A DNA stretch of 64,000 nt. Origin: an uncultured Verrucomicrobiae bacterium. Lineage in GTDB: Bacteria; Verrucomicrobiota; Verrucomicrobiia; Chthoniobacterales; UBA10450. The stretch is from NCBI GenBank assembly GCA_963834385.1, contig CAWIBO010000005.1, forward strand, positions 96,001 to 160,000, written 5' to 3'. This document shows, piece by piece, positions 18,511 to 43,334 of the stretch (positions are counted from its first letter, which is position 1; every line of letters starts with the position of its first letter). Position numbers and translations under genes: made by a program. The notes under the pieces are model-generated. The model was given only the letters and a program-made list of their open reading frames with translations. It searched no databases and had not been told where the DNA came from.

Positions 18511-18720
18511 TTAGGAAAGGAGGAAAGCAGGATGGGGACGGTAGCGTGAGTCGTGAATGGTGAATCGTGAATCGTGAATCGTGGAGGATCGAGCGCCGCT
18601 CACGGACCACGGTCGGTACCGCCATCCTCCATGTTCAATTCTCCATCCTCGTCTTCTCCTGGTTTCCTGGTTTCCAAATTAGAGCCCTTCTTCCTGTTTT
18701 CCTGCTTTCCTGATTCATCC
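18511..18720. repeat. intergenic mosaic of short tandem repeats
   Basis: aggaaag units, gtgaatc x5-6, ccatcct units, ttcctg units. Confidence 0.8.
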
Positions 18721-21124
18721 TGTTCCCCGAATGAGGTCGTCCACGGCGCGTTGAGTTCCCTGTTCCGAGGCCGGCGTGATGCGGATGACGACGCTTTTGC
18801 TGGCGGGGGTGTTGCTGCGAAGGGCGGTGTGGTTGAGCGGCACAAGGACGTTGGCTTCCGGGAAATAGGTCGCGGCGCAGCGCCGGGGAATCTGGAAGGG
18901 CGCGACCATGAACCCGCGCGCGACGCGTTCTTCGCCCTCGTGAATGCTGGTGAGATCGACCACCTGTCCCTGTTGCAGGCCGGCGGCGGAAACATCCTCG
19001 GGGTTCAGGAAAACCACCCGGCGTCCGCGATAAATGCCGCGGTAGCGATCGTTCAACCCATAAATCGTGGTGTTAAACTGGTCGTGACTCCGGATCGACA
19101 TCATGAGGTATTCCCCTTCGCCGAGGGAGACGGAGTCGAGCGGCGAAACAATGAAGCGGGCCTTGCCGGTGGCGGTGTGAAACCGGCGATGATCGCGCGC
19201 GGCATTGGGCAGATAGAAAACATCGCGTCGGATGCGCTCATTGAAGTTCTCGAACCCCGGCACCACCCGGGCGATGTGATCGCGGATCCGGTCGTAATTC
19301 CCCGCCAGCTCCTCCCAGTGCACCGTGCTCCGACCATCCAGGGTGGCGCGGGCCAGGCCGGCCACGATGGCGGGTTCGCTGCGCAAATTCCCCGAGGCCG
19401 GCTCGAGGTGTCCGCGGGACGGGCTGATGATGCCCATGGAATCCTCCACGGTGACGAATTGTTCGCCCGAGATCTGCCGATCAATCTCGGCCCGTCCGAG
19501 GCACGGCAGGATGAGGGCGATTTCGCCGGTGACCAGGTGTGACCGGTTCAACTTGGTCGAGACGTGCGCGGTGACCCGGCAGGATTGCAGGGCGCGGGCG
19601 GTGCCGTCGGTATCGGGCGCCGCGGAGAGAAAATTGCCGCCGAGACCGAAGAAGAAGCGGATGGCGCCGGCCTGCATCCGGCGAATGGTGTCGACGGTAT
19701 CGACCCCGTGCGCGCGCGGCGGATTGAAAGCGAACTCGGCTCCGAGCCGGTCGAGAAAAGCGTCGCTCATCTTTTCCCAGATCCCCATGGTCCGGTCGCC
19801 CTGGACGTTGGAATGTCCGCGGACGGGACAAGGCCCGGCGCCGGGGCGTCCGATGTGGCCGCCGAGAAGGAGAAAGTTCATCACCTCCTGAATGGTGGCG
19901 ACGGCGTTGCGGTGCTGGGTCAGGCCCATGGCCCAGCAACAAATGATGCGCTTCGCCTTCATCGCGATGTCGGCGGCGGCCCGGATCTGGTCGCGGGTGA
20001 GACCGCTCCCGGAGAGGATTTCGGGCCAGGGCGTGGCGCGGGCGTGCTCGAGGTATTCCGCAAACCCGGAGGTGTGTTCGCGGATGAACTCGTGGTCAAA
20101 GACCGTCCCGGGGGCTCGTTCCTCGGCTTCGATCATCTCCCTGACCATCCCGCGGAGGGCCGCGAGATCGCCGTTGATCCGGATGGGCAGCCAGAGATCG
20201 CTGATGGCGCGTGCCGCGGTTCAGCAGCATTTTCGCCGGATACTTGAGGATGTTGCGATACTCCTGCGGGTTCGGGTTGACCACCTCCATCAGGCCGGGT
20301 TCGGGGAGGGGATTGAGAGCGACGATGCGGGCTCCGTTTCGTTTTGCCTCCTCCAGCGTGCTCAGCATGCGCGGATGATTGGTGCCCGGGTTTTGTCCCA
20401 GGATGAAGATCGCGTCCGCCTGCGCGAAATCCGAGAGCTTCACGCAGCCTTTGCCGACGCCGATGCTTTCGCCGAGCGCTTCGCCGCTCGATTCGTGGCA
20501 CATGTTCGAGCAGTCCGGCAGGTTGTTGGTGCCGAATTGGCGCACGAAGAGCTGGTAAAGAAACGCGGCCTCGTTGCTGGTGCGTCCGCTGGTGTAGAAG
20601 GCCGCCGCGTCCGGCGACGGCAGCGCGTTTAGCTCCCGGCCGAGAAGGGCAAAGGCTTCATCCCACGCGATTGGCTGGTAATGCGAAGCGCCGGCCCGTT
20701 TCACCATGGGCTCCACCAGGCGCCCCTGTTGCTCGAGCCAGTAATCGCTCCGCTCCCGCAGGTCGGCCAGGCTGTGCTCGCGAAAAAATTCCGCGCCGAT
20801 GTGCCGTCGCGTCGTTTCGCTCGCGATGGCCTTGGCGCCGTTCTCGCAGAATTCAAAGATGTTGCGATCGTGATCGGGACTCGGCCAGGCGCAGCTCTGG
20901 CAATCGAAGCCCTCCTTCTTGTTCACTTTCAGCCAGGTGCCGAGGCCGCGGAGCAGGCCGGTCTCGCGGGTGGCAAAGCGCAGGCTTTCGATGATTGCCT
21001 TGAGCCCGGCCGCGACGCGATGCGGTTCCTTCTGCCGCGGGGCGGTGGTTTCCGCCGGGGTGCGACCGGAGGCAAGACCTTTCGCGTGGTCTCCCGCCCT
21101 TTCCCGGCCGTTGGCGTCCTGCAT
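18715..21124 (-). CDS. FdhF/YdeP family molybdopterin oxidoreductase; frameshift near 20210
   Basis: GFDCQSCAWP, EFCENGAKA, YTSGRTSNE, NNLPDCSNMCHE, PVRGHSNVQGDRTMGI, RSHDQFNTTIYG. Confidence 0.92.
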
Positions 21125-21290: not shown

Positions 21291-22637
21291 ATGAATCGTA
21301 TCTTCCTGCGCAGAATATGGATGGTCGCTCTGACCCTGCTTGTCCTGGGGGTCGCCCCGGGGCGCGTGCCTGCGGACGAGACCTGTTCCTCGCCTTATCT
21401 CGCCCGCATCGATGGGCAGGAAGAGTTTGTCTACGTCTGGACGTTGGGCGTCGAGGGTCTGGGCGATGGCTCGGACAAATTGGTGACCGTCGACGTCCGG
21501 CCGGGCTCGGAGACCTACGGAAAGGTGATTCATCAGCATTCCGTGGGCGGAAGGAACGAGGCGCACCACGGCGGGTTTACCGATGATCGCCGCCAGCTCT
21601 GGCTGGCCGGGCTGGAGAGCAGCCGGATTTTCATCTACGACGTCTACGGCGACCCGGCGAAACCGAAGTTCGTGCGGAGCATTGACGATCTGGCGGCGGC
21701 GAGCGGCGGGGCGATCGGACCGCATGGTGTGTATGCGCTCCCGGGACGCGTGTTGATCCCCTGTCTCTCCAACGCGAAGGAGAAGAACGGGCGGACGGCG
21801 CTGGTGGAATACGGGAACGACGGCAACTTCATCGCGACCCATTGGCTGCCGACAAAGGGATCAGCGGAAGGTCTGGCCGGGGCGGAGCATGCCGATGGCT
21901 ACGGTTATGACGCGCGGGTCCTGCCCCGCAAAAACCTGCTCCTGACCTCCTCTTTCACCGGCTGGAACAATTACACGCGGGATTTTGGCGCCCTGACGGC
22001 GGATGCGGCAGCGATGAAACAGTTCGGGAACACCATGGTGGCGTGGAATTTTCACACACGGAAACCGGAGAAGGTTTTCCATGTCCCCGGCGCGCCCCTT
22101 GAGATTCGCTGGGCCTGGGGGCGGGACCACAATTATGCCTTCACCGCGGCGGCGCTCACCTCCAGGCTCTGGCTGATCTATGAGGACAATAAGGGAGAAT
22201 GGCAGGCGAGCGAGACGGGCACGGTGGGAAACACGGAAACGGGCGTCCTGCCGGTCGACATCAGCCTGAGCGCCGATGACAAGACGCTCTTTGTCAGTTG
22301 TTTCGCCGACGGCAAATGCCGGGTTTACGATGTCTCCGATCCGCACCGGCCGAAACAGATCCTGGAGAAGGAGATCGGGCGCCAGGTCAACATGGTCTCG
22401 CAAAGCTGGGACGGGAAACGTCTCTACTTCACCAGTTCCGTCCTGGCGAGATGGGACAAGAAAGGGAAGGACAACGACCAGTTTCTGCGCGCCTACACCT
22501 GGAACGGGAAGGATCTGACGCCGACGTTTGCGCTTGATTTCAATGGTTTGAAGCTGGGCCGGCCCCACCACATGCTCTTTGGCGCGCGCAAGCTGGGCGC
22601 ACCGCGGCTGGACGCGAACGTGGCCTCGAACCAGTGA
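21291..22637 (+). CDS. mtoX: methanethiol oxidase (SBP56 family), periplasmic type
   Basis: Signal peptide then DETCSSPY; EAHHGGFTDDRR, SSFTGWNNY, PGAPLEIRW, PVDIS, WDKKG, GRPHHM resemble Hyphomicrobium MtoX as recalled; AAGGAG RBS. Confidence 0.85.
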   Translation: MNRIFLRRIWMVALTLLVLGVAPGRVPADETCSSPYLARIDGQEEFVYVWTLGVEGLGDGSDKLVTVDVRPGSETYGKVIHQHSVGGRNEAHHGGFTDDRRQLWLAGLESSRIFIYDVYGDPAKPKFVRSIDDLAAASGGAIGPHGVYALPGRVLIPCLSNAKEKNGRTALVEYGNDGNFIATHWLPTKGSAEGLAGAEHADGYGYDARVLPRKNLLLTSSFTGWNNYTRDFGALTADAAAMKQFGNTMVAWNFHTRKPEKVFHVPGAPLEIRWAWGRDHNYAFTAAALTSRLWLIYEDNKGEWQASETGTVGNTETGVLPVDISLSADDKTLFVSCFADGKCRVYDVSDPHRPKQILEKEIGRQVNMVSQSWDGKRLYFTSSVLARWDKKGKDNDQFLRAYTWNGKDLTPTFALDFNGLKLGRPHHMLFGARKLGAPRLDANVASNQ

Positions 22638-23329
22638 TTCTTTTTCCTCTATCCGCCCGGGCGGGCACGGTGGCCATGGGCCTGGCGCTCGCGCTGGGAG
22701 TCGCCGCCCAGGCCGGCGCGGAAGATGCGGGGAGCGGACGTCACCCGGATTTCGATTACGATCCGCCCTCGCCCGGTAGCTACGAACTTCCGGTGATCAA
22801 GACGGCCGCGGACGCTCCGTTGCGGGATGTCAGCAGCGCGCCGGTGCGGCTCCGGGAACTGACGGGCGGGCATGTCACCGTCCTGAGTTTCATCTACACG
22901 CGCTGCGGCGATGCGCGCGCCTGCCCCTACGCCTCGAGCGTTTTGAATGATCTGCACCAGGTCACCCGTGGCGATCCCGCGCTGGCCCGGAGCTTGCGCC
23001 TGCTTAGCGTCAGCTTTGATCCGGCGCACGATACCCCGGAACGCATGGCGGCCTACGGCGAGGCGGTGCGCGACGCCGGGGGCGGATGTGATTGGCGCTT
23101 CCTCACGCCGCGTTCCCTGGCCGATCTCCCCGGCCTGCTCATGGCCTACAATCAGAGCGTCAACAAAGCCACAGCCTCGCAACGGGCTGCCGGGCCGCTC
23201 TTTCACACCCTGCGCGTTTACCTCATCGACCGCGAACGCCGCATCCGAAACATCTACAGCTCGGGCACGCTCGACGGGCGCCTCCTCCTCTCCGACATCC
23301 GCACTCTTCTTCTCGAAGAGGTGCGGTAA
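22634..23329 (+). CDS. SCO1/SenC copper chaperone
   Basis: FIYTRCGDARACP, SVSFDPAHDTPE, HTLRVYLID; 4-nt overlap with mtoX. Confidence 0.9.
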   Translation: MILFPLSARAGTVAMGLALALGVAAQAGAEDAGSGRHPDFDYDPPSPGSYELPVIKTAADAPLRDVSSAPVRLRELTGGHVTVLSFIYTRCGDARACPYASSVLNDLHQVTRGDPALARSLRLLSVSFDPAHDTPERMAAYGEAVRDAGGGCDWRFLTPRSLADLPGLLMAYNQSVNKATASQRAAGPLFHTLRVYLIDRERRIRNIYSSGTLDGRLLLSDIRTLLLEEVR

Positions 23330-23719: not shown

Positions 23720-24400
23720 TCAATCGCGCCGGCGCGGTTCGCCCCAGCCGCCAGCGCCGCGATAGCTGCGAGCCCCAGTCAGGGCGAGCTGCTCGAGGCC
23801 GGGATCGAACTCGCGCGTCTTGCACCAGATCTTGAGCTCGTCGCCAAACCCGGCTTGGACGCAATCGTAACAGGCGGGAACCTCGTTTGCGTAACCGCCA
23901 TAAGTGGCGACGCGGGTCCCGAGGGGCCGACCGCCCAGTTGCGCGGCGAGATGCCGCGTGTAGCGGGAACGCAACCCCGGTTCGAGCGGAATTGTCCGGT
24001 CGATCACCGGGCCGCCAAATGAATGTTCCGTGAACGGATTGAAGAGATAGAACGCGTCGTAGTGGGAAAAATCGACCTCGAGCATGTTGGCGTGGCGGAA
24101 GGTGACGTTCTCCAGGCGGAGCTGGGTGGCTGTGGCCCGTGCGATCCTAATCAACTCTGCCCGTTGCTCGATTCCGGTGAAATGGCCGGCGGTGGACGCT
24201 GCCCCGGCGAGACAGAACTTGCCCGGGCCGCAGCCCACGTCGAGGACACGGCAGCCGGGGCGATCGACCAGCTCGCGCGCCGCCGCCGTGGCCACTTCCA
24301 GGGGAGTCCAAAAAGTCTTCGAGAGGGCGCGGAGATGTTCCGGATAGAGCGCATCGAACGATCGGTCGTCGACCGGAAAGGCTGTTTCCGTCGTGGTCAC
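23720..24400 (-). CDS. class I SAM-dependent methyltransferase
   Basis: FWTP, VLDVGCGPGKFC, GIEQR, YLFNPF; GTGA overlap with the ACMSD stop. Confidence 0.85.
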   Translation of the reverse strand: MTTTETAFPVDDRSFDALYPEHLRALSKTFWTPLEVATAAARELVDRPGCRVLDVGCGPGKFCLAGAASTAGHFTGIEQRAELIRIARATATQLRLENVTFRHANMLEVDFSHYDAFYLFNPFTEHSFGGPVIDRTIPLEPGLRSRYTRHLAAQLGGRPLGTRVATYGGYANEVPACYDCVQAGFGDELKIWCKTREFDPGLEQLALTGARSYRGAGGWGEPRRRD

Positions 24401-25449
24401 GGCAGACGAAGGAATTCGCGCACGGTCCCGGCGAGCAGTTGCTCCGCCGTGCCGGGCTCCAGGTCTCTCATCGACTCAATCAGCGCCCCCGGCCGTGCTT
24501 CGCCGAGCGGGAACGGGTAATCCGAGCCGAGGGCGATGCGTTCCGCGCCGAAAAGCTCCAGGAGCATGCGGAGCGCCCCGGCGTCGTGCACCAGCGAATC
24601 GACATAAAAGTGCGCCGGGCGAGAGACGCCCCCTACCTCCCGCCGCAGGTAGGAGCGGGGATTCACCTGGTTATCGACGGCAACAAGGTCGGGCCGCACG
24701 TGGAAGGCGTGCTCGAGCCGGCCGATGGTAAAAGGGAAGCCGCCGCCGCCGTGCGCGAAGGCGACGCGCAACTTCGGGAAACGCTCGAAGACGCCGCCGA
24801 ACATCATGCTGCAGATGGCGAGCGCGGTCTCGGCCGGCATCCCGACCAGCCAGGGCAGCCAGTAATTTGGCATGCGTTCCTTCCCGACCATGTCCCACGG
24901 GTGCACGAAGATGGCGGCGTCCAGCTCCTGCGCCGCGCTCCAGAAGACATCGAGGGCGCGATCATCCAGGTTGCGGCACCCGCCCGGATGGCAATGAACA
25001 TTGGCGTCGAGGTGCGACCCGATCTGTGCGCCCCGCAGGCCGAGTTCGCGCACGGCCCGCTCCAGTTCGCGCGCCGCCCGTTCCGGGTCCTGCAGCGGCA
25101 CCGTGGCCAGGCCGGCGAATTTTTCGGGGAATGCGCCGACGATTTCCGCGAGGTGATCGTTCAGGAAGCGCGCGAGATCAGCGGCGTCGTCTGGTTTGGC
25201 CCAGTAGGAGAACATCACCGGCACCGTCGACAGGACCTGCATGGCCACACCGGTTTCCTGCATCTCTTCGCAGCGCCGTTCCGGGTCCCACGCGTTCTCG
25301 CCGATCTCCCGGAAGAACCGGTCACCGATCATCATCCGCGCGCAGCACGGTTTGTGATGCTCGAGGCGGACGAACCCGGGATAGCCATAGCGGGCGTCGA
25401 GATCCGGCCATTCCCGCGGGAGAATGTGCGTATGGAGATCGATTTTCAC
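24397..25449 (-). CDS. nbaD: 2-amino-3-carboxymuconate-6-semialdehyde decarboxylase (ACMSD)
   Basis: IDLHTHILP, QVLSTVPVMFSYWA, FVHPWDM, WLVGMPAET, AHGGG, GSDYPFPLGE. Confidence 0.93.
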   Translation of the reverse strand: MKIDLHTHILPREWPDLDARYGYPGFVRLEHHKPCCARMMIGDRFFREIGENAWDPERRCEEMQETGVAMQVLSTVPVMFSYWAKPDDAADLARFLNDHLAEIVGAFPEKFAGLATVPLQDPERAARELERAVRELGLRGAQIGSHLDANVHCHPGGCRNLDDRALDVFWSAAQELDAAIFVHPWDMVGKERMPNYWLPWLVGMPAETALAICSMMFGGVFERFPKLRVAFAHGGGGFPFTIGRLEHAFHVRPDLVAVDNQVNPRSYLRREVGGVSRPAHFYVDSLVHDAGALRMLLELFGAERIALGSDYPFPLGEARPGALIESMRDLEPGTAEQLLAGTVREFLRLP

Positions 25450-25551
25450 GGGCCGAAAGAGCTATTTAGCCCGCCCGGACGGCATCGCACCAGAAGAGAA
25501 TATTGTCGGCGCTGGACAAGGCGCCCGGGGCCGGGCAGAGTGCCGCGCCCG

Positions 25552-25632
25552 ATGATCACTCGATCCGATTCCCAGCTCCAGCTTGCGGCCGGCACGGTCC
25601 GCCCGGGAATCGCCGGATACTGGCGTCGCTAA
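25552..25632 (+). CDS. putative trp leader peptide (26 aa)
   Basis: MITRSDSQLQLAAGTVRPGIAGYWRR*; the single TGG (25621-23) lies in the first hairpin arm. Confidence 0.55.
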   Translation: MITRSDSQLQLAAGTVRPGIAGYWRR

Positions 25633-25744
25633 CGCCAGCCCGCAGAGAAGCGTCCGTCCGCCTGGTGGACGCGAACCACTGCCCAGAGACCATCCGCCGC
25701 GGCCGGCCCGGCTGCGGGAACTGCAATCCTTTGTCCCGTTTTTT
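25620..25744 (+). promoter_or_regulatory. putative transcription attenuator
   Basis: Hairpin ctggcgt/acgccag; cccgcag (25639-45) pairs with ctgcggg (25712-18); competing cggga (25715-19)/tcccg (25734-38) stem followed by T6 (25739-44). Confidence 0.55.
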
Positions 25745-25748
25745 ACCC

Positions 25749-27041
25749 ATGTCATCCATTCCATCCTTATCCGCCGCCCTCGAGCTCGACAGCGCCGATC
25801 CGCTGGCCGGGTTTCGCGAGCGCTTTTATCTCCCGCCCGGCCAGATCTACCTCGACGGTAATTCGCTGGGCCTCCTTTCCCGCGAGGCCGAGCAAACGCT
25901 CATGGAGGTCTTCGGGAAATGGAAAACCGGCGGCATCAGCGGCTGGCTCGAGGGTGAGTCGCCCTGGTTCACCATGGCCGAGACCCTGGCCGCGCGCGTC
26001 GCTCCCCTCGTCGGCGCCGCGGCGGATGAGGTGGCCCTGGCCAATTCCATGACGATCAACCTGCACCAGCTCCTGGCCACGCTCTATCGCCCGGAGGCGC
26101 CGCGGAAGAAGGTGTTGATCGACGCGCACAGTTTTCCGACTGATCGCTACGCGCTCCGCAGTCATCTGCGTCTGCGCGGGCTCGACCCGGAAGAACACAT
26201 CGTGATCGCGCCGGCGGGCCGCTCGCGGTTCCTGGACGAGGATGAACTGGTGCGCGCGCTGGCGCAGCCCGGCCTGCAAATGGCCTTGTTGCCTTCCGTG
26301 GTTTACACCACCGGGCAGTTGCTCGATCTGCCGCGGCTTTGCCGGGTGGCCCGCGAGCACGACGTCATCATCGGGCTCGATCTCTCGCACTCTGTCGGCA
26401 TCCTGCCGCACGCACTGGATGAATGGGGCGCCGATTTTGCCGGGTGGGGCCACTATAAATGGTTGAACGCCGGGCCTGGCTCTGTCGCCGGCCTTTATCT
26501 GAACCGCCGGCATTTTGCCGCCAACGGCATGGTGGACGCCGGGCTGGCCGGCTGGTGGAGCGTGCACAAGGAAAGCATGTTCAACATGTCGGACGAATTT
26601 TTTCCGGGTCTCGGGGCTTCGGCGCTGCAGATCGGGACGCCGGCCCTGTTGAGCATGGCGCCCATCGGCGGCGCCTTGCGCCCGGTGGAGGAGGCCGGGA
26701 TCGAGCGGATCCGGGCCAAATCGATTGCGCTGACGGAGTTCATCATGTCGGCGGTCGAGCAGGAGCTTGCCGGGGAGGGTTTCCGTTTGGGGACGCCCCG
26801 CGAAGCAAAACGCCGGGGCGGTCATGTCTCCGTGCGGCATGAGCAGGCGCAGGCACTTTCGCTGGCCTTGCGTGAGCGCGGCGTTGTGCCCGATTTCCGC
26901 AAGCCGGATGTCATCCGTTTCGCGCCATCGCCGCTCTACAACACCTTTGCGGAATGCTGGGAAGCGATCGCGATCCTGAAAGAGATCGCGACCAGCGGGT
27001 CCCATGAGGCCTTCAGCGCCGCGCGCAGCCTGGTCACATGA
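25749..27041 (+). CDS. kynU: kynureninase
   Basis: DPLAGFRERF, IYLDGNSLGL, FPTDRY, DLSHSVG, YKWLNAGPG (PLP Lys), PDFRKPDVIRFAPSPLYN. Confidence 0.95.
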   Translation: MSSIPSLSAALELDSADPLAGFRERFYLPPGQIYLDGNSLGLLSREAEQTLMEVFGKWKTGGISGWLEGESPWFTMAETLAARVAPLVGAAADEVALANSMTINLHQLLATLYRPEAPRKKVLIDAHSFPTDRYALRSHLRLRGLDPEEHIVIAPAGRSRFLDEDELVRALAQPGLQMALLPSVVYTTGQLLDLPRLCRVAREHDVIIGLDLSHSVGILPHALDEWGADFAGWGHYKWLNAGPGSVAGLYLNRRHFAANGMVDAGLAGWWSVHKESMFNMSDEFFPGLGASALQIGTPALLSMAPIGGALRPVEEAGIERIRAKSIALTEFIMSAVEQELAGEGFRLGTPREAKRRGGHVSVRHEQAQALSLALRERGVVPDFRKPDVIRFAPSPLYNTFAECWEAIAILKEIATSGSHEAFSAARSLVT

Positions 27042-28150
27042 GCATGGAAAGCAAACGCCGGCCGGCCTGGCTGCTCCCGACACCGGCGCGCCGTGACGAA
27101 GGCGAAGCGGCGCTGCCGGTGCGATCGCTCCTGGTGCAGTTGATGCAGGGGAAGGACCTGTCGCGGGATGAGGCCGCCCTTCTTTTCGGCGCAGCCATGG
27201 ATGAACGGGCCAGCGACGCGCAGATCGGCGCGGCCTTGGTGGCGCTGGCCGTGAAAGGCGAGACGGTGGAGGAACTCACCGGCATGGCGGAAGCCATGCG
27301 GGCGCGCGCCGTCCGCATCCGGACGCGCCATGAACGGTTCGTCGATACCGCCGGGACGGGATCGAGTCATGCCAAGACGTTCAACGTCTCGACCGCGGCC
27401 GCCTTTGTCTGTTCCGGGGCGGGTCTGCCGGTGGCCAAGCATGGGAGCCGGGCCGCCACCAGCCTCTCGGGCAGCGCGGATGTTCTCGGCGAACTTGGGG
27501 TGAATGTGCAGACCGACGCGGCCACGGCCGCACGCTGTCTCGATGAGATCGGCATCTGTTTCCTTTTTGCGCCTCTTTATCACCGGGCCACCGCCCGCGT
27601 CGCCGGGATTCGGCGCGAACTCGGCGTGCACACCACCTTTAATCTTCTCGGTCCGCTGACCAACCCGGCGGGCGCCCCCTTCCAGGTCATCGGGGTCTGG
27701 CATGAAGCGCTGCTCGAGCCGCTGGCGCACACGCTCCTCGCCCTCGGGACAAAGCGCGCCTGGGTGGTCCATGGGCGCGACGGACTGGACGAGATCACCA
27801 CGAGCGGACCGACGTTGGTCGCGGAGGTTCGGGAGGGAACGGTCCAGCGCCGCACGGTAGTTCCGGCTGATTTTGGGCTGGCGACTTCTTCTTCCCTGGC
27901 GGAACTCCGCGGAGGCACTCCCCGTGACAACGCCGGGCTGATCCGCGCCGTTCTTGCGGGTCAGGACGGAGTGCGTGTCGAAGGGGCGCGCGACCTGATC
28001 GTGGCGAACGCGGCCGCGGCGCTTTTCGTGGGCGGCCACGCGGAAACACTCCCGGCGGCTGCTGAGCTCGCACGCGAAAGCATCCGCGCGGGCGCCGCCC
28101 TCACAAAGGTCGAACAATTAATTCAATGGACCGGGGGCAAGGCGTCATGA
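27038..28150 (+). CDS. trpD: anthranilate phosphoribosyltransferase
   Basis: DTAGTG, TFNVST, VAKHGSR, SGSAD, FNLLGPLTNP, DGLDE. Confidence 0.96.
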   Translation: MSMESKRRPAWLLPTPARRDEGEAALPVRSLLVQLMQGKDLSRDEAALLFGAAMDERASDAQIGAALVALAVKGETVEELTGMAEAMRARAVRIRTRHERFVDTAGTGSSHAKTFNVSTAAAFVCSGAGLPVAKHGSRAATSLSGSADVLGELGVNVQTDAATAARCLDEIGICFLFAPLYHRATARVAGIRRELGVHTTFNLLGPLTNPAGAPFQVIGVWHEALLEPLAHTLLALGTKRAWVVHGRDGLDEITTSGPTLVAEVREGTVQRRTVVPADFGLATSSSLAELRGGTPRDNAGLIRAVLAGQDGVRVEGARDLIVANAAAALFVGGHAETLPAAAELARESIRAGAALTKVEQLIQWTGGKAS

Positions 28151-28956
28151 GCGATTTTCTCTCCAAAATCCTGGCCGCGCGGCGGGCCCGCGTGGCGAGG
28201 GATTTTTCGCCCGCGGTGCGCCCCTCCTGGCGGGAAAGGGCTGCGTTCGCCCGGGCCCGGCGGGACCATTTCTGTTTGCGCACGGCCCTGGCGGCCAGCA
28301 CGGGCCTGATCGCCGAGTTCAAACGCCGTTCGCCTTCCCGCGGTTTGATCCGGCCGGAGGCCGACCCTGCCCTCGTCGCCGCGCAATATGCCGAGGGCGG
28401 CGCCTGTGCCGTCTCCGTCCTGACCGAGCCGGATTTTTTTCAGGGCTCGCTTGCCGATCTCAGGGCGGCACGCGAAGCGGTTTCCCTGCCGGTTTTGCGC
28501 AAGGATTTTATCGTCGATGAAGTGCAGATCGACGAGGCCGCGGTGGCGGGCGCGGAGGCGGTGCTCCTGATCGTGGCCGCACTGGGCGATGGGGAGCTCG
28601 AACGTTTCCGTCGCCGGGCCGAGGATGACCTTGGCCTGGATGCGCTGGTCGAGGTGCACACGCCGGAAGAGATGCGTCGCGCCGCCGGGAGCGGAGCCAG
28701 TCTGATCGGGGTAAACAACCGGAACCTGTCGACCTTTGCCGTCTCTCTCGACACCTCGGAGGAACTGGCGCTGCTCGCGCCCGAAGGATCCGTGCTCGTG
28801 AGCGAGAGCGGGATTCATGGCCGCGCCGACGTTGAACGCCTGCGTGCTCTCGGGTATCGCGGGTTCCTCGTCGGTGAAGCGCTCATGCGCTCCGATCATC
28901 CCGCGGCGCTCCTGCGATCTCTTGGCGGCGCGGTGAATGGGAGCGTGCACCGATGA
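28147..28956 (+). CDS. trpC: indole-3-glycerol phosphate synthase
   Basis: IAEFKRRSPSRG, SVLTEPDFFQGS, LRKDFI, GVNNRNL, VSESGI, LVGEALMR. Confidence 0.96.
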   Translation: MSDFLSKILAARRARVARDFSPAVRPSWRERAAFARARRDHFCLRTALAASTGLIAEFKRRSPSRGLIRPEADPALVAAQYAEGGACAVSVLTEPDFFQGSLADLRAAREAVSLPVLRKDFIVDEVQIDEAAVAGAEAVLLIVAALGDGELERFRRRAEDDLGLDALVEVHTPEEMRRAAGSGASLIGVNNRNLSTFAVSLDTSEELALLAPEGSVLVSESGIHGRADVERLRALGYRGFLVGEALMRSDHPAALLRSLGGAVNGSVHR

Positions 28957-29615
28957 GAACGGGCAAGGTGGGAGTAAAGGTTTGTGGCGTCACCACGGTT
29001 GAAGACGCCCTCATCTGCGGGGGCGCCGGCGTGGACTGGATCGGGTTGAACTTCTCGGCCACGAGCGTCCGGCAGGTGCCGCTGGACCGGGCACGGGACA
29101 TCACCCGGGCCGTGCGGGCGAAGCATGCCGGGATGCGTTTCATCGGCCTTTTCGTGAACCAACCGGCGGAGGAGATCGAAACGATCGTGAACACTCTCAT
29201 GCTCGACGGGGTGCAGTTGCACGGGCGCGAGACGCCCTCCGAGGTCGCCGCCATCCGCGCGCCGTGGGTGATCAAGGCGTTGCCTGTCGCCCCCGGCTTC
29301 AACCCGGAGTCTGTCCGGGCCTACCCTTGCGATGCGATCCTGCTCGACGCCTGGAGCCCGACCGCTGCCGGCGGCACGGGTGCGAGTTTCCCGTGGGAGA
29401 TCGCGGCCGCCGTTCGTCCCCTCGTCCGATGTTTGCTCCTGGCGGGCGGGCTCCACGACGGCAACGTTGCGCGCGCCATTGCCGCCGCGCGCCCCGACCT
29501 GGTCGATGTCTGCAGTGGCGTGGAATCAGCGCCGGGGCGCAAGGACGGCGAGAAGGTGCGCCGTTTTGTCGAGGAGACGCGCGCCGCGCTGCAACCGGAG
29601 GGAGTCGCGTCATGA
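28953..29615 (+). CDS. trpF: phosphoribosylanthranilate isomerase
   Basis: [37 protein letters not shown]. Confidence 0.95.
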
Positions 29616-30829
29616 CAAAATTTCGTTCCGAGCCGGATGCGGCCGGCTTTTGGGGACCGTTCGGTGGTCGTTTTGTGGCGGAGACGCTGATGGCGCCATT
29701 GGAGGAACTGACAAAGGCGTTTCGCGAAGCGCAGGCGGATGCCGGGTTTCTGCGAGAACTCGATGGATTGCGGCGCGAATACACGGGGCGCCCGACCCCC
29801 CTGGGATTTGCCGCGCGCCTGACGGAGCACGCCGGAGGGGCGCGCATTTATCTCAAGCGGGAGGATCTGCTGCACACCGGGGCGCACAAGATCAACAACG
29901 CGCTCGGGCAGGGCCTGCTCGCGCGACGCATGGGAAAACGCCGGATTATCGCCGAGACCGGGGCGGGCCAGCATGGCGTGGCCACGGCGACCGTTTGTTC
30001 GCTGCTCGGTCTCGAGTGCGTCATTTACATGGGAGAAGAGGATGCGCGGCGCCAGGAACCGAATCTCCATCGCATGCGCCTCCTCGGGGCCGAGGTGCGC
30101 CTGGTTTCGCAGGGATCGCGCACGCTCAAGGATGCCATCAATGAGGCGTTGCGCGACTGGGTCACGCACGCCCGCGAGACTTACTATCTTTTGGGGAGCG
30201 CGCTCGGTCCGCATCCGTATCCGCTGATGGTGCGGGAGTTCCAGAAGGTGATCGGGCAGGAGACGCGGGCGCAGTTCCGGGCCCGCGTTCGGCGCAATCC
30301 GGATGCGCTCGTTGCCTGCGTCGGCGGCGGCTCCAACGCGATCGGATTCTTCCACGCTTTTCTCTCCGATACCGGCGTCCGCCTGCTCGGCGTCGAGGCC
30401 GGTGGAAAGGGGAGCGGGCTTGGAGAACATGCGGCCCGTTTCCGCAAGCGGGGCGGGGGACGCCCCGGCGTTTTGCACGGCACCCACAGTTACGTCCTGC
30501 AGGACAAGGCCGGGCAGATTGCGAGCACGCATTCGATCTCCGCCGGGCTCGATTATCCGGCGATCGGCCCGGAGCACGCCTTCCTGCGCGACCGGAAGCG
30601 CGTCGAGTATGTCGCCGTGGGTGACCGCGCCGCTCTTCAGGCCTTGGAACTTCTTGCCCGGCTGGAAGGAATCATTCCCGCGCTCGAATCGGCCCATGCG
30701 GTCGCGCAGGCTCTCCTGCTCGCGCCCACCATGTCGCGGCGCCAGGCCATCGTGGTCAATCTCTCCGGCCGGGGCGACAAGGATCTCGGCGCCCTCTCTG
30801 CGCCGCCGGTCAGGACGGGCCGGTTATGA
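29612..30829 (+). CDS. trpB: tryptophan synthase beta chain
   Basis: [52 protein letters not shown]. Confidence 0.98.
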
Positions 30830-31627
30830 GCGTTTTGCGTGACAGCTTTGCCGCCGTGCGCGCTTCCGGACGTCACGGGGTCATTCCGTTCCTGGTCGCA
30901 GGCGACCCCGACCTCGCCACCACCGGCAGGCTGGTGCGGGAACTGAGCGCGTTGCAGCCCGTCGCGATCGAGATCGGTGTTCCCTTCAGTGACCCATCGG
31001 CCGACGGCCCGGTGATCCAGCGCGCTTCCGGCCGGGCGCTGCGTCGCGGCACCACCCTGGCGAACGTGCTCGAGCATTTGAAAAAGACGCGAACAGCCGC
31101 GCGGGCTCCCCTGGTTCTGTTCACCTATTACAATCCGTTGTTGCAGCTTGGTCTGGCCAACTTCGCCGGGAAAGCTGCGCGCGCGGGCGTGGCCGGTGTC
31201 CTGGTGGTCGACCTTCCGGCCGAGGCGGCCGGCGCCCTGCGGGGCCATCTTTCCCGGAAAGGCCTCGACCTTATCCTCCTGGTCGCGCCGACCACCTCGG
31301 CGGATCGGCTTCGACAGATTGCGCGGACCGCTTCCGGTTTTATCTACGCCGTGGCTCGCACGGGGGTGACCGGTAACACCCGCGGCCACTCCGACGAATC
31401 CGCGGAACTGGTAGAGCGTCTTCGTGCTCTGACGTCTCTCCCTGTGGCGGTCGGCTTCGGGATCAGGACCCGGGCCCGGGTTGGGCAGGTCTGCCGTTAC
31501 GCCGACGCCGCGGTGGTCGGCTCCGCCCTCGTGGAAACGATTGAGAAAGCCTCGGCCGGTCCCCAAAAGGCCCGACGGCGGTGACGTCGTCGCGCAGGCG
31601 ATGCGGTATGCGCGGACGCTCTTCTAA
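30826..31627 (+). CDS. trpA: tryptophan synthase alpha chain; probable frameshift near 31565 (annotated frame stops at 31584)
   Basis: [43 protein letters not shown]; alternative-frame tail [14 protein letters not shown] ends at 31627. Confidence 0.95.
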
Positions 31628-32205
31628 TCGCGGAACGGCTTCACCGGCTCCGGTTTCGGCACTTTGTGTCCGCAGTTTTTGCAGGTGCGCCGGGCGTCGT
31701 CGTTCCAGAAATCGAGCATGGCCTTGCTGAACGCCTGGACGATGTCGGCACAATCGAAATCGATGTCTTCCACCAGCGCCTCGCATTTTTCGCAGTAAAA
31801 GATGACGTGCTCGTGCTCGCCGGCCGGTCGGCGGCGCTCCACCACCAGCCCGAGCGTGTCGGGCGGGCGCACCGGCGCGTGCGGGACATTCGGTGGAATG
31901 AAAAAGGTTTCACCCTCGCGCACGAGATGATCGACGATGTGATCGCCCTCGCGGATGCGCACCTTGATATCGCCTTTCAGCTGGTGGAAAAACTCCTCGG
32001 AATCGACCTGGTGAAAATCGTTCCGGGCATTTGGTCCCTTGATGATCATCACGAAAAAATCGCGGCCATCGTAGAGATACTGATTGCTCACCGGCGGCTT
32101 GAAGTTGTCCCGGTTCTTCTCCACCCAGCCCATCAGGTCGATGGGCGCCTGCACGGAGGAACCGGTTTCCGAAGGGGAGGCGGGAGCGGCGACGGCGTTG
32201 GCCAT
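31624..32205 (-). CDS. nbaC: 3-hydroxyanthranilate 3,4-dioxygenase
   Basis: KPPVSN, GPNARNDFH, EEFFHQLKG, PPNVPHAP, VVERRR, rubredoxin-like YCEKC and TCKNC. Confidence 0.93.
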   Translation of the reverse strand: MANAVAAPASPSETGSSVQAPIDLMGWVEKNRDNFKPPVSNQYLYDGRDFFVMIIKGPNARNDFHQVDSEEFFHQLKGDIKVRIREGDHIVDHLVREGETFFIPPNVPHAPVRPPDTLGLVVERRRPAGEHEHVIFYCEKCEALVEDIDFDCADIVQAFSKAMLDFWNDDARRTCKNCGHKVPKPEPVKPFRD

Positions 32206-32747: not shown

Positions 32748-33549
32748 CTAGGCCAAGTCGCGCAGCGGTCGCCCGGACCGGCCCCGGAGCACCGCCATGA
32801 TCTCGGCCAGCACGCTGATCGCGATCTCGGCCGGCGCGTCGGCCCCGAGGTCGAGCCCAAGCGGCGCATACACCCGCCCGAGTTGCTCCGCGGTCGCGCC
32901 GTCGGCCCGCAGCCGGTCAAAGACCATCCGCACTTTGCGCCGGCTTCCGATCATCCCCAGATACCCAAGGCCGGAAAGCGGCAGCGCGGCCGCCAGGGCT
33001 TCCCGATCGATCTCGTGATTGCGGGAGACCAGCACCAGCGCCTCGGTTTCTCCCCAACTGCGCGCGCGAATGAACTCCGGCGCGCTCAGCTTGGTCTGCC
33101 GGAGCGCGCCCGCCGGGAAACCGTCGAGCTGGTCAGGCCGGTCTTCGGTCACGGTGACGGAAAATCCGGCCTGGAGGGCGAGCCGGGCGATGGCGCGGGC
33201 GCAATGCCCGCCGCCGACGAGATGGATGGTTTCGCCGGCCACCTGCGGTTCGATCAGGAGTGTGACCTCGCCGCCGCAGATGGCGCCGAAAGATTCGGGG
33301 TCGCCCTCGTGCAGCGGATACGTCCGCAGCGCGGGTTCTCCGCTGGGCAAGGCGCGCACGCGCTTCTTCGATCGCCAGCGACTCGAGTTTGCCGCCGCCG
33401 ATGGTGCCGCTGCTCCGGCCGTCGGCGTAGACGATCATCTTGGCCCCGGCGGCGCGCGGGACCGAGCCGGTGCAGGCGGCCACGGTCACAAGCGCGCAGG
33501 GTTGCCGGGCGCGTCGGGCCGCCAGCAGTTCCTCGAGCAGATCAGTCAT
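32748..33549 (-). CDS. xdhC: XdhC/CoxI family xanthine dehydrogenase maturation factor; frameshift near 33355
   Basis: GSVPRAAGAKM, GTIGGGKLE, then ICGGEV, VGGGHC, YLGMIGSRRK, PLGLDLGA..PAEIAIS. Confidence 0.9.
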
Positions 33550-34387
33550 GGCGGACAACGCTCACCTCGATTTGTCCGTGCGGTTCGTCGATCGGGACGA
33601 AGACATCGTTTGGGTTGTCGAGACCGAACGGAGCCAGATTGATGAGCAGGCAATGCTTGTTCGGCATGGCCAGGTCGAGCCGCTCAATCTCGGCGCAGGC
33701 GGCCAGCGCGGCTTCGCCCATCTGGAAAAGCGTGGTTTGCGCAGAGGGACTGTAGTTTTGCGCAAAGACGGTCAGCATCGCCTCGAGAATGGCGCGGTTC
33801 GCCGTGGCATGGCTCTGCGGGGTCCGCGCAAAATACCACGTGGCGCTGAACGACGTCCCAAGGATGCGGTCAGCCGTCTCCGGCAGGGTGGTGAATTCGT
33901 CTCTCGGATAATTCTCGAAACCGGAGCCGGTGCTCTTGAGCAGGACGAGATCGCGAATGCCGGAGGCGACCGTGGCCGCTCCCTGGCGGCAGACGACGCG
34001 GGTGAAGGGGCGCGCCTCGTTCCCGGCGAGAAAGGAATGGTCGTGCGGTTTTCCCGCCACCACCATGCGCTCCCAGCGACGCTCGCTGATCTCGATCTGC
34101 GCCTCCTGCACCTGCGGATAACGCGTCACGAAATGGTCGCCCAGGACGACCGCGAACTTCTCGAGCTCGTTGCCGAGATGCTGGCGGGCCATGACGTTGA
34201 CCGTGTTCTTGATCGTGTCGGTCGCGACCACTTTCGTGTTGTCGCCCGCGGTGTAGGAACTCTCGAAATCGCCCCGGAGCAGGGCCATGACGCTGATATC
34301 CTTGAGGGTATGAAGAGGGCCGTCCCGCAGGACCTTGAGGACGCGGACCCGGCCTTTCCCGTAACGGTGATCGATCACCTTAGCCAT
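33542..34387 (-). CDS. pucL: uricase (factor-independent urate hydroxylase)
   Basis: YGKGRV, VVATDTIKNTV, LKSTGSGF, FTTLPE, SPSAQ, MPNKH, PHGQI. Confidence 0.96.
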   Translation of the reverse strand: MAKVIDHRYGKGRVRVLKVLRDGPLHTLKDISVMALLRGDFESSYTAGDNTKVVATDTIKNTVNVMARQHLGNELEKFAVVLGDHFVTRYPQVQEAQIEISERRWERMVVAGKPHDHSFLAGNEARPFTRVVCRQGAATVASGIRDLVLLKSTGSGFENYPRDEFTTLPETADRILGTSFSATWYFARTPQSHATANRAILEAMLTVFAQNYSPSAQTTLFQMGEAALAACAEIERLDLAMPNKHCLLINLAPFGLDNPNDVFVPIDEPHGQIEVSVVRHD

Positions 34388-34424
34388 TGCCGCCCAGAAA
34401 TAATTCGTTTAAGCCGGCAAGGCG

Positions 34425-34919
34425 ATGCCAAACCTCGAGGAAATCAACGCGATGGACCGGGCCGGGTTTACCCGGCACCTGGGACCGCTCTTTGAGCATT
34501 CGCCCTGGGTGGCGGAACGGACCTGGCCGGAACGCCCTTTTCCCGGGGAGAAAGAGCTGCACGCCGCCCTTTGCCGGACGGTGCGGGAGGCGGACGCCGC
34601 CGAACAGCTCGCGCTGATCGCGGCCCACCCGGACCTGGTGACAAAAGCCGTGCTCACCCGCGAATCGCAGGGCGAACAGGCCAGCGCCGGGCTCGGCTCG
34701 CTCACGGAAGCGGAGGCGCAGGCCTTCCGGGAATACAACGCCGCCTACCGCGCGCGTTTCGGGTTTCCCTTCATCATCTGCGCCCGGCTCAATAAAAAAG
34801 AGGCGATCCTGGAGGCGTTCCCCCGGCGCCTGGAGAATTCGCGCGAGAAAGAGATCGAAACCGCCCTCGAAGAAATATACAAGATTGCGGAGTTGCGCCT
34901 GCGCGACCTGATCGGATGA
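34425..34919 (+). CDS. uraD: OHCU decarboxylase
   Basis: [38 protein letters not shown]. Confidence 0.95.
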
Positions 34920-35242
34920 GCATGCTTTCCACCCACGTCCTTGATACGGCCAAAGGCCGGCCCGCCGCCGGCATGAAGATCGAGCTGCGCTCGCTTGACC
35001 GGGACGAACTGTTGAAAACGGTGAGCACGAACGCCGACGGCCGGACCGACGCCCCGCTGCTCGCGGCCGATGAGATGAAAGCGGGCCGCTACGAGCTGCT
35101 TTTCCACGTGGGCGATTATTTCGGCGAACGGAAGTTTCTTGATGTCGTGCCGGTGCGTTTCACGATTTCCGACGCCGGCGCGAAGTATCATGTGCCGCTG
35201 CTTGTCTCTCCCTGGAGCTACAGCACGTATCGGGGAAGCTGA
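34916..35242 (+). CDS. uraH: 5-hydroxyisourate hydrolase
   Basis: LSTHVLD, YHVPLL, C-terminal YRGS. Confidence 0.96.
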
Positions 35243-35244
35243 AG

Positions 35245-35585
35245 AGGTTTAACCACAGAGACGCAGAGGGCGCAGAGGGGGAGCTTTGGGGGAAAGTTGG
35301 GAGACGGCGGGTGTTTGCTGGAAGAGGACAGGATTTACAGGATGGACAGGATTTAAAGGGGTCTTTACGTGGTTTTCTTGCAGGCACAGCCCGGGCATAC
35401 GATTCACGATTCACCATTCACGACTCACGCCCCTTTCCCTCCCCCGGTAGGGCGAGACTCCGTCGAGCCTGGGAGTAGGTTTAACCACAGAGACGCAGAG
35501 GGCGCAGAGGAGGAGCTTTGGGGGAAACTTGGGAGACGGCGCGTGTTTATTGGAAGAGGACAGGATTAACAGGATGGACAGGATT
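35245..35585. repeat. 109-bp direct repeat pair flanking a heptamer array and a GTAG-type REP
   Basis: 35245-35353 vs 35477-35585, 6 mismatches by eye; gattcac-type x4 at 35401; gtagggcgagactccgtcgagcc at 35447. Confidence 0.9.
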
Positions 35586-35718
35586 GCAGGACGCAGGCGT
35601 TCACGACCCTCGCAAAGATCCGGATGGCGCGACGACGGCAGTTTGTGCGATACCTTTGCCCCAATGCTTCACCTCTTCTCTGCGACCTCCGCGACCTCTG
35701 CGTGAGGCCACTCCGGAC

Positions 35719-36729
35719 ATGACCGAGAGAGACCAGACACCGCCCGGCCTCGTTGATCTCGCCGCCGCCCGCGTGGGCGGGCTCGCCCTCGTGGCCAACG
35801 ACGAATTTTTCGCCGAGAAAGAAAACCTGCTCAAGCCGGGCCGCGGCATCTTCATCCCCGACAAATACACCGATCACGGCAAATGGATGGATGGCTGGGA
35901 AAGCCGGCGCCGGCGCACGCCCGGTCACGACTGGTGCGTGGTCCAGCTCGGGATGCGCGGGATCATTCGCCAGGTCGACATCGACACCAACCATTTCCTG
36001 GGGAACCATCCGCCCTTTGCCTCTCTCGAAGCGCTCGACCTGCGCGAGAAGATCGACCGCGCGGCGGTGGAAAAGCTTCCCTGGAGCCCGTTGCTCGAGA
36101 AATCGCCGCTCAACCCCGGCTCACAGAACCTGTGCAACGTCGCGAACGACCAGCCTTGGACGCATGTGAAGCTGAACATCTTTCCGGATGGCGGCGTGGC
36201 CCGCCTTCGCGTTTACGGAGTGGTGGTGCCCGACTGGAGCCAGTTCAAGCCGGGCGAAGCGATTGACCTGGCGGCGATCGAGAACGGCGGCGTCCCGCTC
36301 GCCTGCAGCGACATGTTCTTTTCCTCGATGCACAACCTGATCATGCCCGGTCGCTCGGAAAACATGGGCGACGGCTGGGAAACAAAACGCCGGCGCGGGC
36401 CGGGACACGACTGGCTTATCCTGAAGCTCGGCCGGCCGGGCACAATCGAGAAAATCGAAGTCGACACCAACCATTTCAAGGGGAACTACCCCGACACCTG
36501 CTCGATTGAAGGCTGCGCCGCACCGGAGGCCACCGTCGAGAGTCTTCAGAGCGACGCGGTCAAGTGGCGCGAGATCCTGCCAAAAACAAAACTCCAGGCC
36601 GACACGCGCCACTACTTCGAACGCGAGTTGTCTCCACTGCCGGATTGTTCCCATCTCCGGCTCAACATTTTCCCCGACGGCGGCGTCAGCCGTCTGCGCG
36701 TCTGGGGCCGATTGCCAGCGCCCGCATGA
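35719..36729 (+). CDS. alc: allantoicase
   Basis: Internally duplicated DGWESRRRR/DGWETKRRR, DTNHF.GN, IFPDGGV.RLRV. Confidence 0.95.
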   Translation: MTERDQTPPGLVDLAAARVGGLALVANDEFFAEKENLLKPGRGIFIPDKYTDHGKWMDGWESRRRRTPGHDWCVVQLGMRGIIRQVDIDTNHFLGNHPPFASLEALDLREKIDRAAVEKLPWSPLLEKSPLNPGSQNLCNVANDQPWTHVKLNIFPDGGVARLRVYGVVVPDWSQFKPGEAIDLAAIENGGVPLACSDMFFSSMHNLIMPGRSENMGDGWETKRRRGPGHDWLILKLGRPGTIEKIEVDTNHFKGNYPDTCSIEGCAAPEATVESLQSDAVKWREILPKTKLQADTRHYFERELSPLPDCSHLRLNIFPDGGVSRLRVWGRLPAPA

Positions 36730-38023: not shown

Positions 38024-38026
38024 TCG

Positions 38027-39384: not shown

Positions 39385-39408
39385 GACGGCGCGCGTGATG
39401 ATCCGGAG

Positions 39409-43279: not shown

Positions 43280-43287
43280 ACCTCCCG

Positions 43288-43334
43288 GGTAGGGTGGGCG
43301 TCCCGCCCGCCGGTCCGGGCGTCTCGCCCGGACG
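43288..43334. repeat. GTAG-type REP-like palindrome pair
   Basis: gtagggtgggcgtcccgcccgcc followed by gtccgggcgtctcgcccggac hairpin just after the xdh stop. Confidence 0.65.

Follow-up and report, generated by a model that had tools for sequence, protein, structure and literature searches.

A conserved tryptophan-codon leader precedes a kynureninase-headed trp operon in Chthoniobacterales and is a candidate ribosome-stalling sensor

INTRODUCTION

Why should the gene for kynureninase, normally a catabolic enzyme, stand at the head of an operon for Trp biosynthesis, behind a short reading frame that ends with a Trp codon? The question is raised by a locus in a 64,000-nucleotide stretch of DNA (hereafter the window) from an uncultured Verrucomicrobiae bacterium. 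An earlier note, made from the letters of the window, had read the region upstream of kynU as a leader-peptide attenuator in which a ribosome stalled at the Trp codon frees an antiterminator, and one reaching the stop codon masks it. The general model of ribosome-mediated attenuation is set out in the accessible parts of 10.1101/834739, PMC6614838 and 10.1101/606483. The operons of Chlamydia caviae, C. felis as well as C. pecorum show the order trpR-trpD-trpC-trpF-trpB-trpA-kynU-prsA (Xie et al. 2002, as described in PMC3937554), and the accessible text of PMC3937554 states that kynU and prsA are known in no other trp operon.

RESULTS

The operon and its genome

In the window the gene order is kynU-trpD-trpC-trpF-trpB-trpA, with overlapping stops and starts of successive genes (Table 1); neither prsA nor trpR is present in this operon, which ends at trpA with a convergent gene next. 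The divergently transcribed amidohydrolase gene, which from sequence and context we take to code for an ACMS decarboxylase (ACMSD), is the divergent neighbour at most leader loci.

The window's own genome (G000; 2.9 Mb, 5 contigs, 89.6% complete) carries aroC, and no anthranilate synthase or other chorismate-binding enzyme was found in it with PF00425 or TIGR00564, nor did tblastn with the TrpE of a relative return anything; since this genome is incomplete and most relatives are fragmented MAGs, the absence of trpE is unproven genome by genome. G000 also encodes TDO, a second kynureninase (40% identity), Rho, a KMO-like protein whose best match is VioC, and a KynB-like protein with a score just under the cut-off. 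The KynB-like cyclase gene directly follows that of adenine deaminase, and its role in kynurenine formation is therefore uncertain. Neither TrpR nor TRAP was found in G000.

The relatives with a close kynU orthologue are Chthoniobacterales, and our comparison set consisted of 51 genome loci with such an orthologue, in 25 of which trp genes lie directly after kynU. At L052, L055, L058, L063, L064, L067 and L074 the gene immediately after kynU is trpC or trpF, trpD or trpC being non-adjacent, and no trpD was located in these genomes. The TrpD proteins linked to kynU share a conserved N-terminal extension, RRP[AS]WLLPTP[AT]RRD, which has a Trp codon close to the start (window 27038-27110; L003, L005, L010 and L011). 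This extension was not seen at the TrpD start in aroF-trpGE operons, and it could be a second Trp-sensitive coupling point.

Table 1. Coordinates of the features of the leader and operon in the window
Feature	Position	Strand	Remark
Amidohydrolase, divergent from leader	24397..25449	-	PF04909
Predicted sigma-70-type promoter, TGGACA-17-CAGAGT	25513..25541	+	Motif and spacing recur in orthologous leaders
trpL-like leader ORF, 26 codons, MITRSDSQLQLAAGTVRPGIAGYWRR (then stop)	25552..25632	+	Orthologues 23-33 codons, conserved W-R-R end
P1 stem, 5' part of leader ORF (25563-73) with segment just upstream of Trp codon (25605-18)	25563..25618	+	Duplex -16.3 kcal/mol, z -2.9
Local hairpin over Trp codon, 1:2-like, candidate pause hairpin	25620..25638	+	P=0.99, free RNA
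Putative sensor Trp codon, TGG	25621..25623	+	Invariant in 20 aligned leaders
H2, conserved post-stop hairpin, 2:3-like	25650..25672	+	82% of cells paired vs 31-41% slid
C-rich, G-poor spacer end with U-run (25739-44), no Shine-Dalgarno before start codon	25689..25748	+	Candidate Rho-loading and/or open initiation region
H3, GC-rich spacer hairpin	25698..25716	+	-14.3 kcal/mol
kynU2, kynureninase	25749..27041	+	TIGR01814 above cut-off
trpD	27038..28150	+	TIGR01245 above cut-off; 4-nt overlap with kynU stop
trpC	28126..28956	+	NF001377 above cut-off
trpF	28953..29615	+	NF002298, E 3e-54, below curated cut-off
trpB	29612..30829	+	TIGR00263 above cut-off
trpA, last gene of operon	30826..31584	+	TIGR00262 above cut-off
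3-Hydroxyanthranilate 3,4-dioxygenase, convergent on trpA, outside operon	31624..32205	-	PF06052; TIGR03037 above cut-off

The leader ORF follows the trp genes

The reading frame on which the earlier note was built proved real and conserved, with orthologues of the same W-R-R end upstream of kynU in related genomes. In the window it opens with the ATG at 25552, closes with the TAA at 25630-32 and has the C-terminus GYWRR. Of the 51 loci, 19 have upstream of kynU a reading frame of 23-33 codons whose body varies and whose end is of the W-R-R type, in most cases YWRR-stop; the frame is kept over this whole length, with synonymous variation in the Tyr (TAT/TAC) and Arg (CGT/CGC/CGG) codons. At L069 and L055 the W-R-R is no longer followed by a stop and the reading frame continues over another 5-6 codons, so that the position of the stop is not strictly fixed. 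The motif TAYTGGCGNCG lies upstream of kynU in 15 of the 51 loci, and it occurs 18 times in the 2.9 Mb of G000, about 1e-3 per 400-nt window; the short leader pattern was run over 355 genomes, and this run serves as a background rate only. Among the 983 G000 genes with a gap of at least 120 nt, as called by a simple codon-score finder, a single one, that which begins the kynU operon, is preceded by a short ORF ending [YW]W-x-x-stop, and no other convincing amino-acid leader ORF was found in G000 for internal comparison.

The 20 kynU-type leaders analysed were picked for carrying TGG, and specificity was tested by comparing gene contexts. The leader is present in 17 of the 23 kynU-trp loci with at least 300 nt upstream and missing from 6 of the 23, two further loci being too short upstream; it is also present at both kynU loci whose downstream side is cut off. 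Where no trp genes lie downstream of kynU it was found in 0 of 23 loci (0/20 without adjacent trp genes, 0/3 with kynU after trpA). The genomes are kin, and contingency p-values for leader against context are therefore too strong. L083, which has no upstream DNA, was excluded from the leader and TrpE counts; these counts include the unpublished genomes G387, G407 and G417 (L046, L066 and L076), all in the no-leader group, on which the conclusions do not depend. The leader of L086 is identical to one from G226.

A related leader also stands before ordinary aroF-trpG-trpE-trpD operons, at 3 of 8 operon heads, none being found at the remaining 5; among 20 trpE regions, in most of which trpE sits inside an operon or by itself, none has a leader motif right in front of trpE. 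In genus g10 a query of leader plus aroF matched 52 of 71 genomes, and 28 of the best 30 loci have an ORF of 23-27 codons ending W-R or W-W (one of the others is truncated, one masked). Many g10 leaders (L236-L265) have an AUG or GUG opening a mini-ORF of 2-7 codons just before the aroF start, 25-35 nt upstream of aroF, which is missing in some. Wider searches added no context: a longer leader pattern over 211 genomes gave mostly chance matches (among the 30 loci listed, 4 by kynU and none by aroF or trpE), covariance model R1 over 147 genomes gave 7 strong matches, all known leaders, the rest having E>4e-4, and a metagenome scan gave one close kynU, without upstream DNA.

By these comparisons the leader ORF is real, conserved and associated with trp genes rather than with kynU. 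Since it also precedes ordinary aroF-trpG-trpE operons, we conclude that it would be the trpL of this family, retained when kynU became the operon's first gene; and because the element also serves de novo Trp operons, its direction is presumably starvation-on. The note had remarked on biosynthetic logic applied to a catabolic gene: the logic appears to hold, this being a likely starvation-on Trp leader, and the paradox does not, as kynU here heads trpDCFBA, apparently in the place of anthranilate synthase. The note's caveat that there is only one Trp codon loses its force, since 13/20 kynU-type leaders (where this is the commonest state) and 11/28 g10 leaders have one.

This distribution also bears on the reading of the leader as a TnaC-like arrest peptide, at whose end free Trp would stall the ribosome and so induce kynureninase for catabolism. 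A length of 23-28 codons is tunnel-sized, the TDO, KynB-like and KMO-like genes of G000 would fit a catabolic role, and Rho is a plausible effector; yet a leader that never precedes kynU without trp genes but does precede aroF-trpG-trpE, with an unconserved peptide body and in front of trpDCFBA genes whose induction by excess Trp would be futile, makes this reading hardly credible.

The promoter noted upstream, TGGACA (25513-18), 17 nt and CAGAGT (25536-41), is present, and the form TGGACA-16/17-CA(A/G)(A/G)TT recurs in 13 of 20 kynU-type leaders, although a consensus scan of the window called 0 promoters and none at this site. In g10 a TCGACA-type -35 box lies at the equivalent position in 27/28 leaders and the distance from it to the ATG is 29-31 nt in 26/28, which places the ATG at the expected start site, and the leader ORF is thus predicted to be leaderless. 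The distance is 29-30 nt in 6/20 kynU-type leaders. In the window the ATG lies 33 nt after the -35 box, about 3 nt past the expected start site, and this copy is predicted to be near-leaderless.

A kynureninase with residues of the kynurenine type

Alignment of KynU2 to PDB 1QZ9, 7S3V and 3E9K places its residues W66 and G296-T297 opposite a Trp and a Gly-Thr in the enzyme from Pseudomonas (1QZ9), and its W/T pair opposite the Trp/Thr of an engineered kynurenine-selective human variant (7S3V); the wild-type human enzyme and the G000 paralogue, KynU1, have His and Ser-Asn. W with GT is found in 47 of 51 KynU2 orthologues, the other 4 being partly unseen, and H with SN in 20 of 23 paralogue rows. 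According to the accessible part of PMC11329768, W102/T333 (human positions) marks a preference for kynurenine and H102/N333 one for 3-hydroxykynurenine, and the W/T motif is a correlate that is not strictly required for kynurenine activity. On the strength of W66/T297, KynU2 likely yields anthranilate, the substrate of TrpD. KynU2 itself contains 9 Trp residues.

Of 28 genomes with trp-linked kynU2, 5 gave a full-length TrpE-like match, one more a fragment and another a distant match, vs full-length matches in 10 of 20 with unlinked kynU2, a comparison among kin genomes that are not independent and whose completeness is not given. Among the 19 leader-bearing relatives 15 have no TrpE match, 1 has a fragment and 3 have a full TrpE; in these 3 of 19 it is encoded elsewhere in the genome, and they need not rely on salvage. 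In three leader-bearing genomes trpE-trpG lies elsewhere, which suggests that kynU joined the operon before trpE was lost. Genome G019 (95% complete, with a kynU-trp operon) has only a C-terminal trpE fragment (C10:140871-141143, a 103-aa frame), possibly decay in progress or a contig artefact. G020, G033 and G003 (96-100% complete) are without trpE and trpB and appear to be full auxotrophs.

Structure of the leader RNA

Taken alone, the window would make a weak case. No promoter was called, its 211-nt leader region shows no more folding stability than shuffled sequence (z -0.71), and Rfam gave only 4 weak unrelated matches, far under the gathering score. The complementary strings of the earlier note are all in place: ctggcgt (25620-26) with acgccag (25632-38), gcgtcc (25650-55) with ggacgc (25667-72), cccgcag (25639-45) with ctgcggg (25712-18), and cggga (25715-19) with tcccg (25734-38), followed by T6 (25739-44). 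The first pair, which encloses the TGG, forms with near certainty in free RNA the hairpin that the note drew, and the second, a stem after the leader stop, is kept in position among orthologues.

The switch proposed from the last two pairs, a cccgcag/ctgcggg antiterminator against a cggga/tcccg-T6 intrinsic terminator, finds little in its favour beyond the strings themselves, the T6 that abuts the stem and a cost of only 2 kcal/mol for forcing the terminator. The antiterminator has a pairing probability of 0.000 in all 8 constrained folds and is unseen in orthologues. The terminator reaches P 0.05-0.36, is weak and is not conserved; moreover it is likelier with a ribosome at Trp (P 0.14-0.36) than in free RNA or with one at the stop (0.05-0.11), the direction opposite to that proposed. 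Folding with the ribosome placed at the Trp codon vs the stop, the check suggested for this switch, thus did not favour it, and H3, which had gone unmentioned, competes by taking ctgcgg, the arm that the antiterminator needs. Hairpins of variable sequence occupy the H3 position in most orthologues. With neither element conserved, we regard this switch as very improbable. The consensus scan gave one other weak terminator-like site, at 25713-25 (0.3+/-0.6 expected).

The structures that recur among orthologues, to differing degrees, are the hairpin over the Trp codon, H2 and P1. Alignment A4 covers 14 of the 20 kynU-type leaders, and alignment A5 23 of the 30 g10 loci plus L192. The WRR codons of orthologues pair with a segment 15-25 nt on, with 86% of cells paired and 1 compensatory cell, and the RNAalifold consensus pairs these codons with the 5' arm of H2; a hairpin over the Trp codon appears in 16/16 nascent-length folds, barely beyond shuffles (mean z -0.56). 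H2 begins about 15 nt after the stop codon and has a mean z of -1.5, with z <0 in 18 of 20 leaders; it shows no compensatory change in a 14-sequence core and is kept with different sequences in divergent leaders. The 1:2 and H2 helices share a CGC in orthologues, whereas the window's two hairpins do not overlap and coexist. The comparison of orthologous leaders that the note had asked for thus came out in part as hoped, with the Trp codon invariant (in leaders chosen for TGG) and H2 kept, and in part not, covariation of 1:2 and H2 being close to nil.

P1 is significant at p<=0.05 in 19 of 24 g10 leaders, where RNAalifold draws an 8-bp helix with wobble and 2 compensatory columns. In kynU-type leaders the duplex test was significant in only 3 of 20, and 71% of cells are paired vs 33-42% in slid controls, with a covariation of 0.163 vs 0.115+/-0.020. 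The sequence of P1 differs among g10, kynU-type leaders and the window, which has a third sequence; the partner of the leader's start in P1 sits 5-20 nt before the Trp codon. Masking of the Trp region raises start accessibility in 20/24 g10 and 12/20 kynU-type leaders, and in the window from 0.33 to 0.57. P1 also weighs against the view that the window's leader came along with the promoter as a relic and has ceased to regulate in G000. Such a view would fit the absence of the leader from 6/23 kynU-trp operons and the rather divergent window copy (CM score 54 vs 63-78 bits for five others), but the ORF, Trp codon and H2 of the window are intact and P1 has been rebuilt from a different sequence, and we consider it most unlikely.

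Candidate outputs of the leader

The end of the spacer is C-rich and G-poor: the C-G skew of the last 60 nt has a mean of 0.33 in 20 leaders vs 0.07+/-0.21 in 565 G000 upstream regions (called with the same simple finder), the window's spacer, at 0.23, standing at the 79th percentile of these regions. The body of the leader ORF has a modest C>G skew, with a mean of 0.18. The skew could also reflect merely an open, SD-free initiation region. SD-like motifs precede only 11% of the 565 predicted G000 starts, and of the 130 convergent gaps in this genome just 10 contain a hairpin-plus-U terminator; both SD pairing and intrinsic termination appear to be used sparingly by this organism. Two strong rho-family matches lie in G000 at C2:180018-181244 and C2:1256100-1257179.

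TTTT occurs in the last 25 nt of 16 of 20 leaders vs 8% of the background, the U-run lying 5-15 nt before the ATG, and this conservation is an argument for an output in which transcription terminates or pauses at the U-run in a factor-independent way. Once freed, the 3' arm of H2 would then form a long-range pairing with a C/U-rich segment 25-45 nt before the ATG and make an atypical weak terminator; indeed, when the H2 5' arm is masked, arm 3 folds onto a downstream segment in L047, L053, L064, L079 and L082, and in L064 and L079 this helix ends near the U-run. Against this, most orthologues have a gap of 10-20 unpaired, C/A-rich bases between any helix and the U-run, a strict hairpin-plus-U-tract pattern was found in 3/20 leaders only, at unrelated positions, and g10 leaders have no U-tract after the last hairpin. 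We therefore hold such an output to be unlikely, if less so than the switch of the earlier note.

Equilibrium folding of stalled vs free leaders, run on the orthologues with a GC[AUG]UC core (4 leaders have none), gave no consistent switch: the mean P of the H2 base was 0.52 vs 0.50, that of 1:2 only 0.09, and the accessibility of the spacer 0.49 vs 0.47. Start-site accessibility did not change consistently, staying at about 0.72-0.77 in all modelled states. This speaks against translational attenuation of the mycobacterial leaderless poly-Cys type, in which vacated WRR codons would pair near the kynU start and block translation, polarity being secondary. The predicted leaderless architecture does fit the mycobacterial system, as far as that is described in the accessible part of 10.1101/834739, and in L051, L052, L053 and L059 a complement of 7-9 bp to the WRR arm lies at a distance of 20-30 nt ahead of the ATG. 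A general role for such pairing was rejected, however, since it is significant in 4/20 kynU-type and 0/24 g10 leaders and non-significant in the window, and G000 makes little use of SD sequences; we judge this output improbable.

DISCUSSION

Our comparisons show that the promoter, the leader ORF, its Trp codon and the post-stop hairpin are conserved and linked to trp genes. On balance we favour the reading in which the conserved W-R-R leader is a ribosome-stalling sensor that turns kynU-trpDCFBA on when charged tRNA-Trp is scarce, Trp then being made from kynurenine-derived anthranilate. The proposed sensing of Trp by stalling at UGG is well supported by the anatomy of the leader, and a ribosome that had loaded at the 5' end or close to it would very probably stall on the UGG during Trp starvation and thereby raise expression of the operon.

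How the signal is read out is the weakest step, in which our confidence falls a little short of even. When Trp is plentiful the ribosome would leave, P1 would form across the leader start and so prevent reloading, and the bare, C-rich leader of 200 nt would let Rho terminate in the spacer or in early kynU; a ribosome stalled on UGG would lie over the WRR arm and also over the 3' arm of P1, so that in this model the leader stays loaded and Rho is blocked. No intrinsic terminator would take part. Rho is favoured here because the leaders have no terminator and no occlusion of the start site, because rho is present and intrinsic terminators are rare, and because of the C-rich spacer and P1.

As to the product, quite probably KynU2 cleaves kynurenine to anthranilate for TrpD and so replaces TrpE/TrpG, and the H/N-type KynU1 would serve the 3-hydroxykynurenine/NAD route. 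The kynurenine may be of external origin or a product of the TDO/KynB route in the cell itself, and in either case the outcome would be recovery of Trp rather than its net synthesis from chorismate.

Compared with known systems, the leader resembles the trpL leaders of E. coli and of trpE(G) in Sinorhizobium: a short ORF before Trp biosynthesis genes has one or more near-terminal Trp codons followed by Arg, with a hairpin over the Trp codon and a potentially competing hairpin after the stop. It differs in that most copies carry a single Trp codon where trpL has 2-3 in tandem, in a length of 23-33 rather than 14 codons, in being often leaderless by prediction with P1 over the leader start, in having no Rfam match and no TrpR found in the genome, and in having no conserved intrinsic terminator; of the hallmarks of a classical trpL, an upstream ORF with a Trp codon was found and an intrinsic 3:4 terminator with U-tract was not. 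With the mycobacterial poly-Cys ORFs, as described in the accessible part of 10.1101/834739, it shares a leaderless architecture (here predicted), the absence of an intrinsic terminator and a sensor ORF that carries the cognate codons at its 3' end. In the mycobacterial case the tract, once vacated, base-pairs with the SD of the gene that follows, whereas no such conserved pairing, and no hiding of a downstream initiation region by the sensor codons, was found here, in leaders with Trp instead of Cys codons, in a different phylum and with low SD use. According to the accessible text of 10.1101/2022.06.01.494293, Rho acts in translated leaders, causing conditional termination at uORFs of M. tuberculosis. 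The present leader has the marks of such a Rho-dependent uORF attenuator in the rho gene of its genome and in its C-rich, G-poor stretch, a moderate skew that also allows the alternative reading given above. In E. coli, tnaC, which stands before a catabolic gene, is induced by Trp through peptide-specific arrest. The present leader is like it in its approximately 24 codons, in the spacer before the first gene and in the Rho-dependent control proposed here, and unlike it in its variable peptide body and biosynthetic context, neither a conserved peptide body nor a catabolic context having been found.

The operon itself is like the recapture operon of Chlamydia caviae, in which kynU also accompanies trpD, C, F, B and A in an operon without anthranilate synthase; there anthranilate comes from kynurenine, as we propose here. 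It is unlike it in belonging to free-living soil bacteria, in having kynU first and not near the end, in the absence of prsA and trpR from the operon, in a genome that also encodes TDO, a KynB-like protein and another kynureninase, of the H/N type, and in a putative control that, as far as seen, lies with the leader alone. Within the literature covered, which took in few subscription journals and no older computational surveys of attenuators, no earlier description was found of a terminator-less trpL-like sensor or of a kynU-headed trp operon in free-living bacteria. Two things thus appear to be new here: a putative sensor of the trpL kind that does not pass the intrinsic-terminator test, and, in such bacteria, a trp operon with kynU at its head.

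Chthoniobacterales are abundant soil bacteria that are often called amino-acid auxotrophs from missing pathway genes (according to the accessible part of PMC7343977). If kynU replaces trpE/G, some apparent Trp auxotrophs would be scavengers of kynurenine or anthranilate, which would alter metabolic models and isolation media, and trp operons that contain kynU would gain a second representative, found outside intracellular pathogens. The roughly 50 natural variants of the leader, a putative Trp sensor that is terminator-less and often single-codon, offer a test set for the control of Rho or pausing by a stalled ribosome. A wider picture, which we put forward as possible though doubtful, is that soil Chthoniobacterales have developed, independently of Chlamydia, a Trp-kynurenine-Trp loop in which one kynureninase would lead to NAD and another would replace anthranilate synthase, with kynurenine as a scavenged or stored reserve of Trp; the loop would be gated by a new attenuator architecture, leaderless, single-Trp, self-silencing through a stem over the start codon, and acting through Rho without a terminator hairpin.

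Other genes in the window

Positions 32748-45232 of the window hold a purine/urate degradation cluster with genes for an XdhC-like protein, urate oxidase and adenine deaminase and, judging from sequence, probably also OHCU decarboxylase, HIU hydrolase, allantoicase and allantoinase. A formate-dehydrogenase-like molybdoprotein is encoded in two overlapping frames at 18715-21124, possibly through a frameshift or a sequencing error. Positions 21321-23329 hold a methanethiol oxidase gene (NF052453 above cut-off) and, after it, a gene that presumably codes for a SCO-family copper protein.
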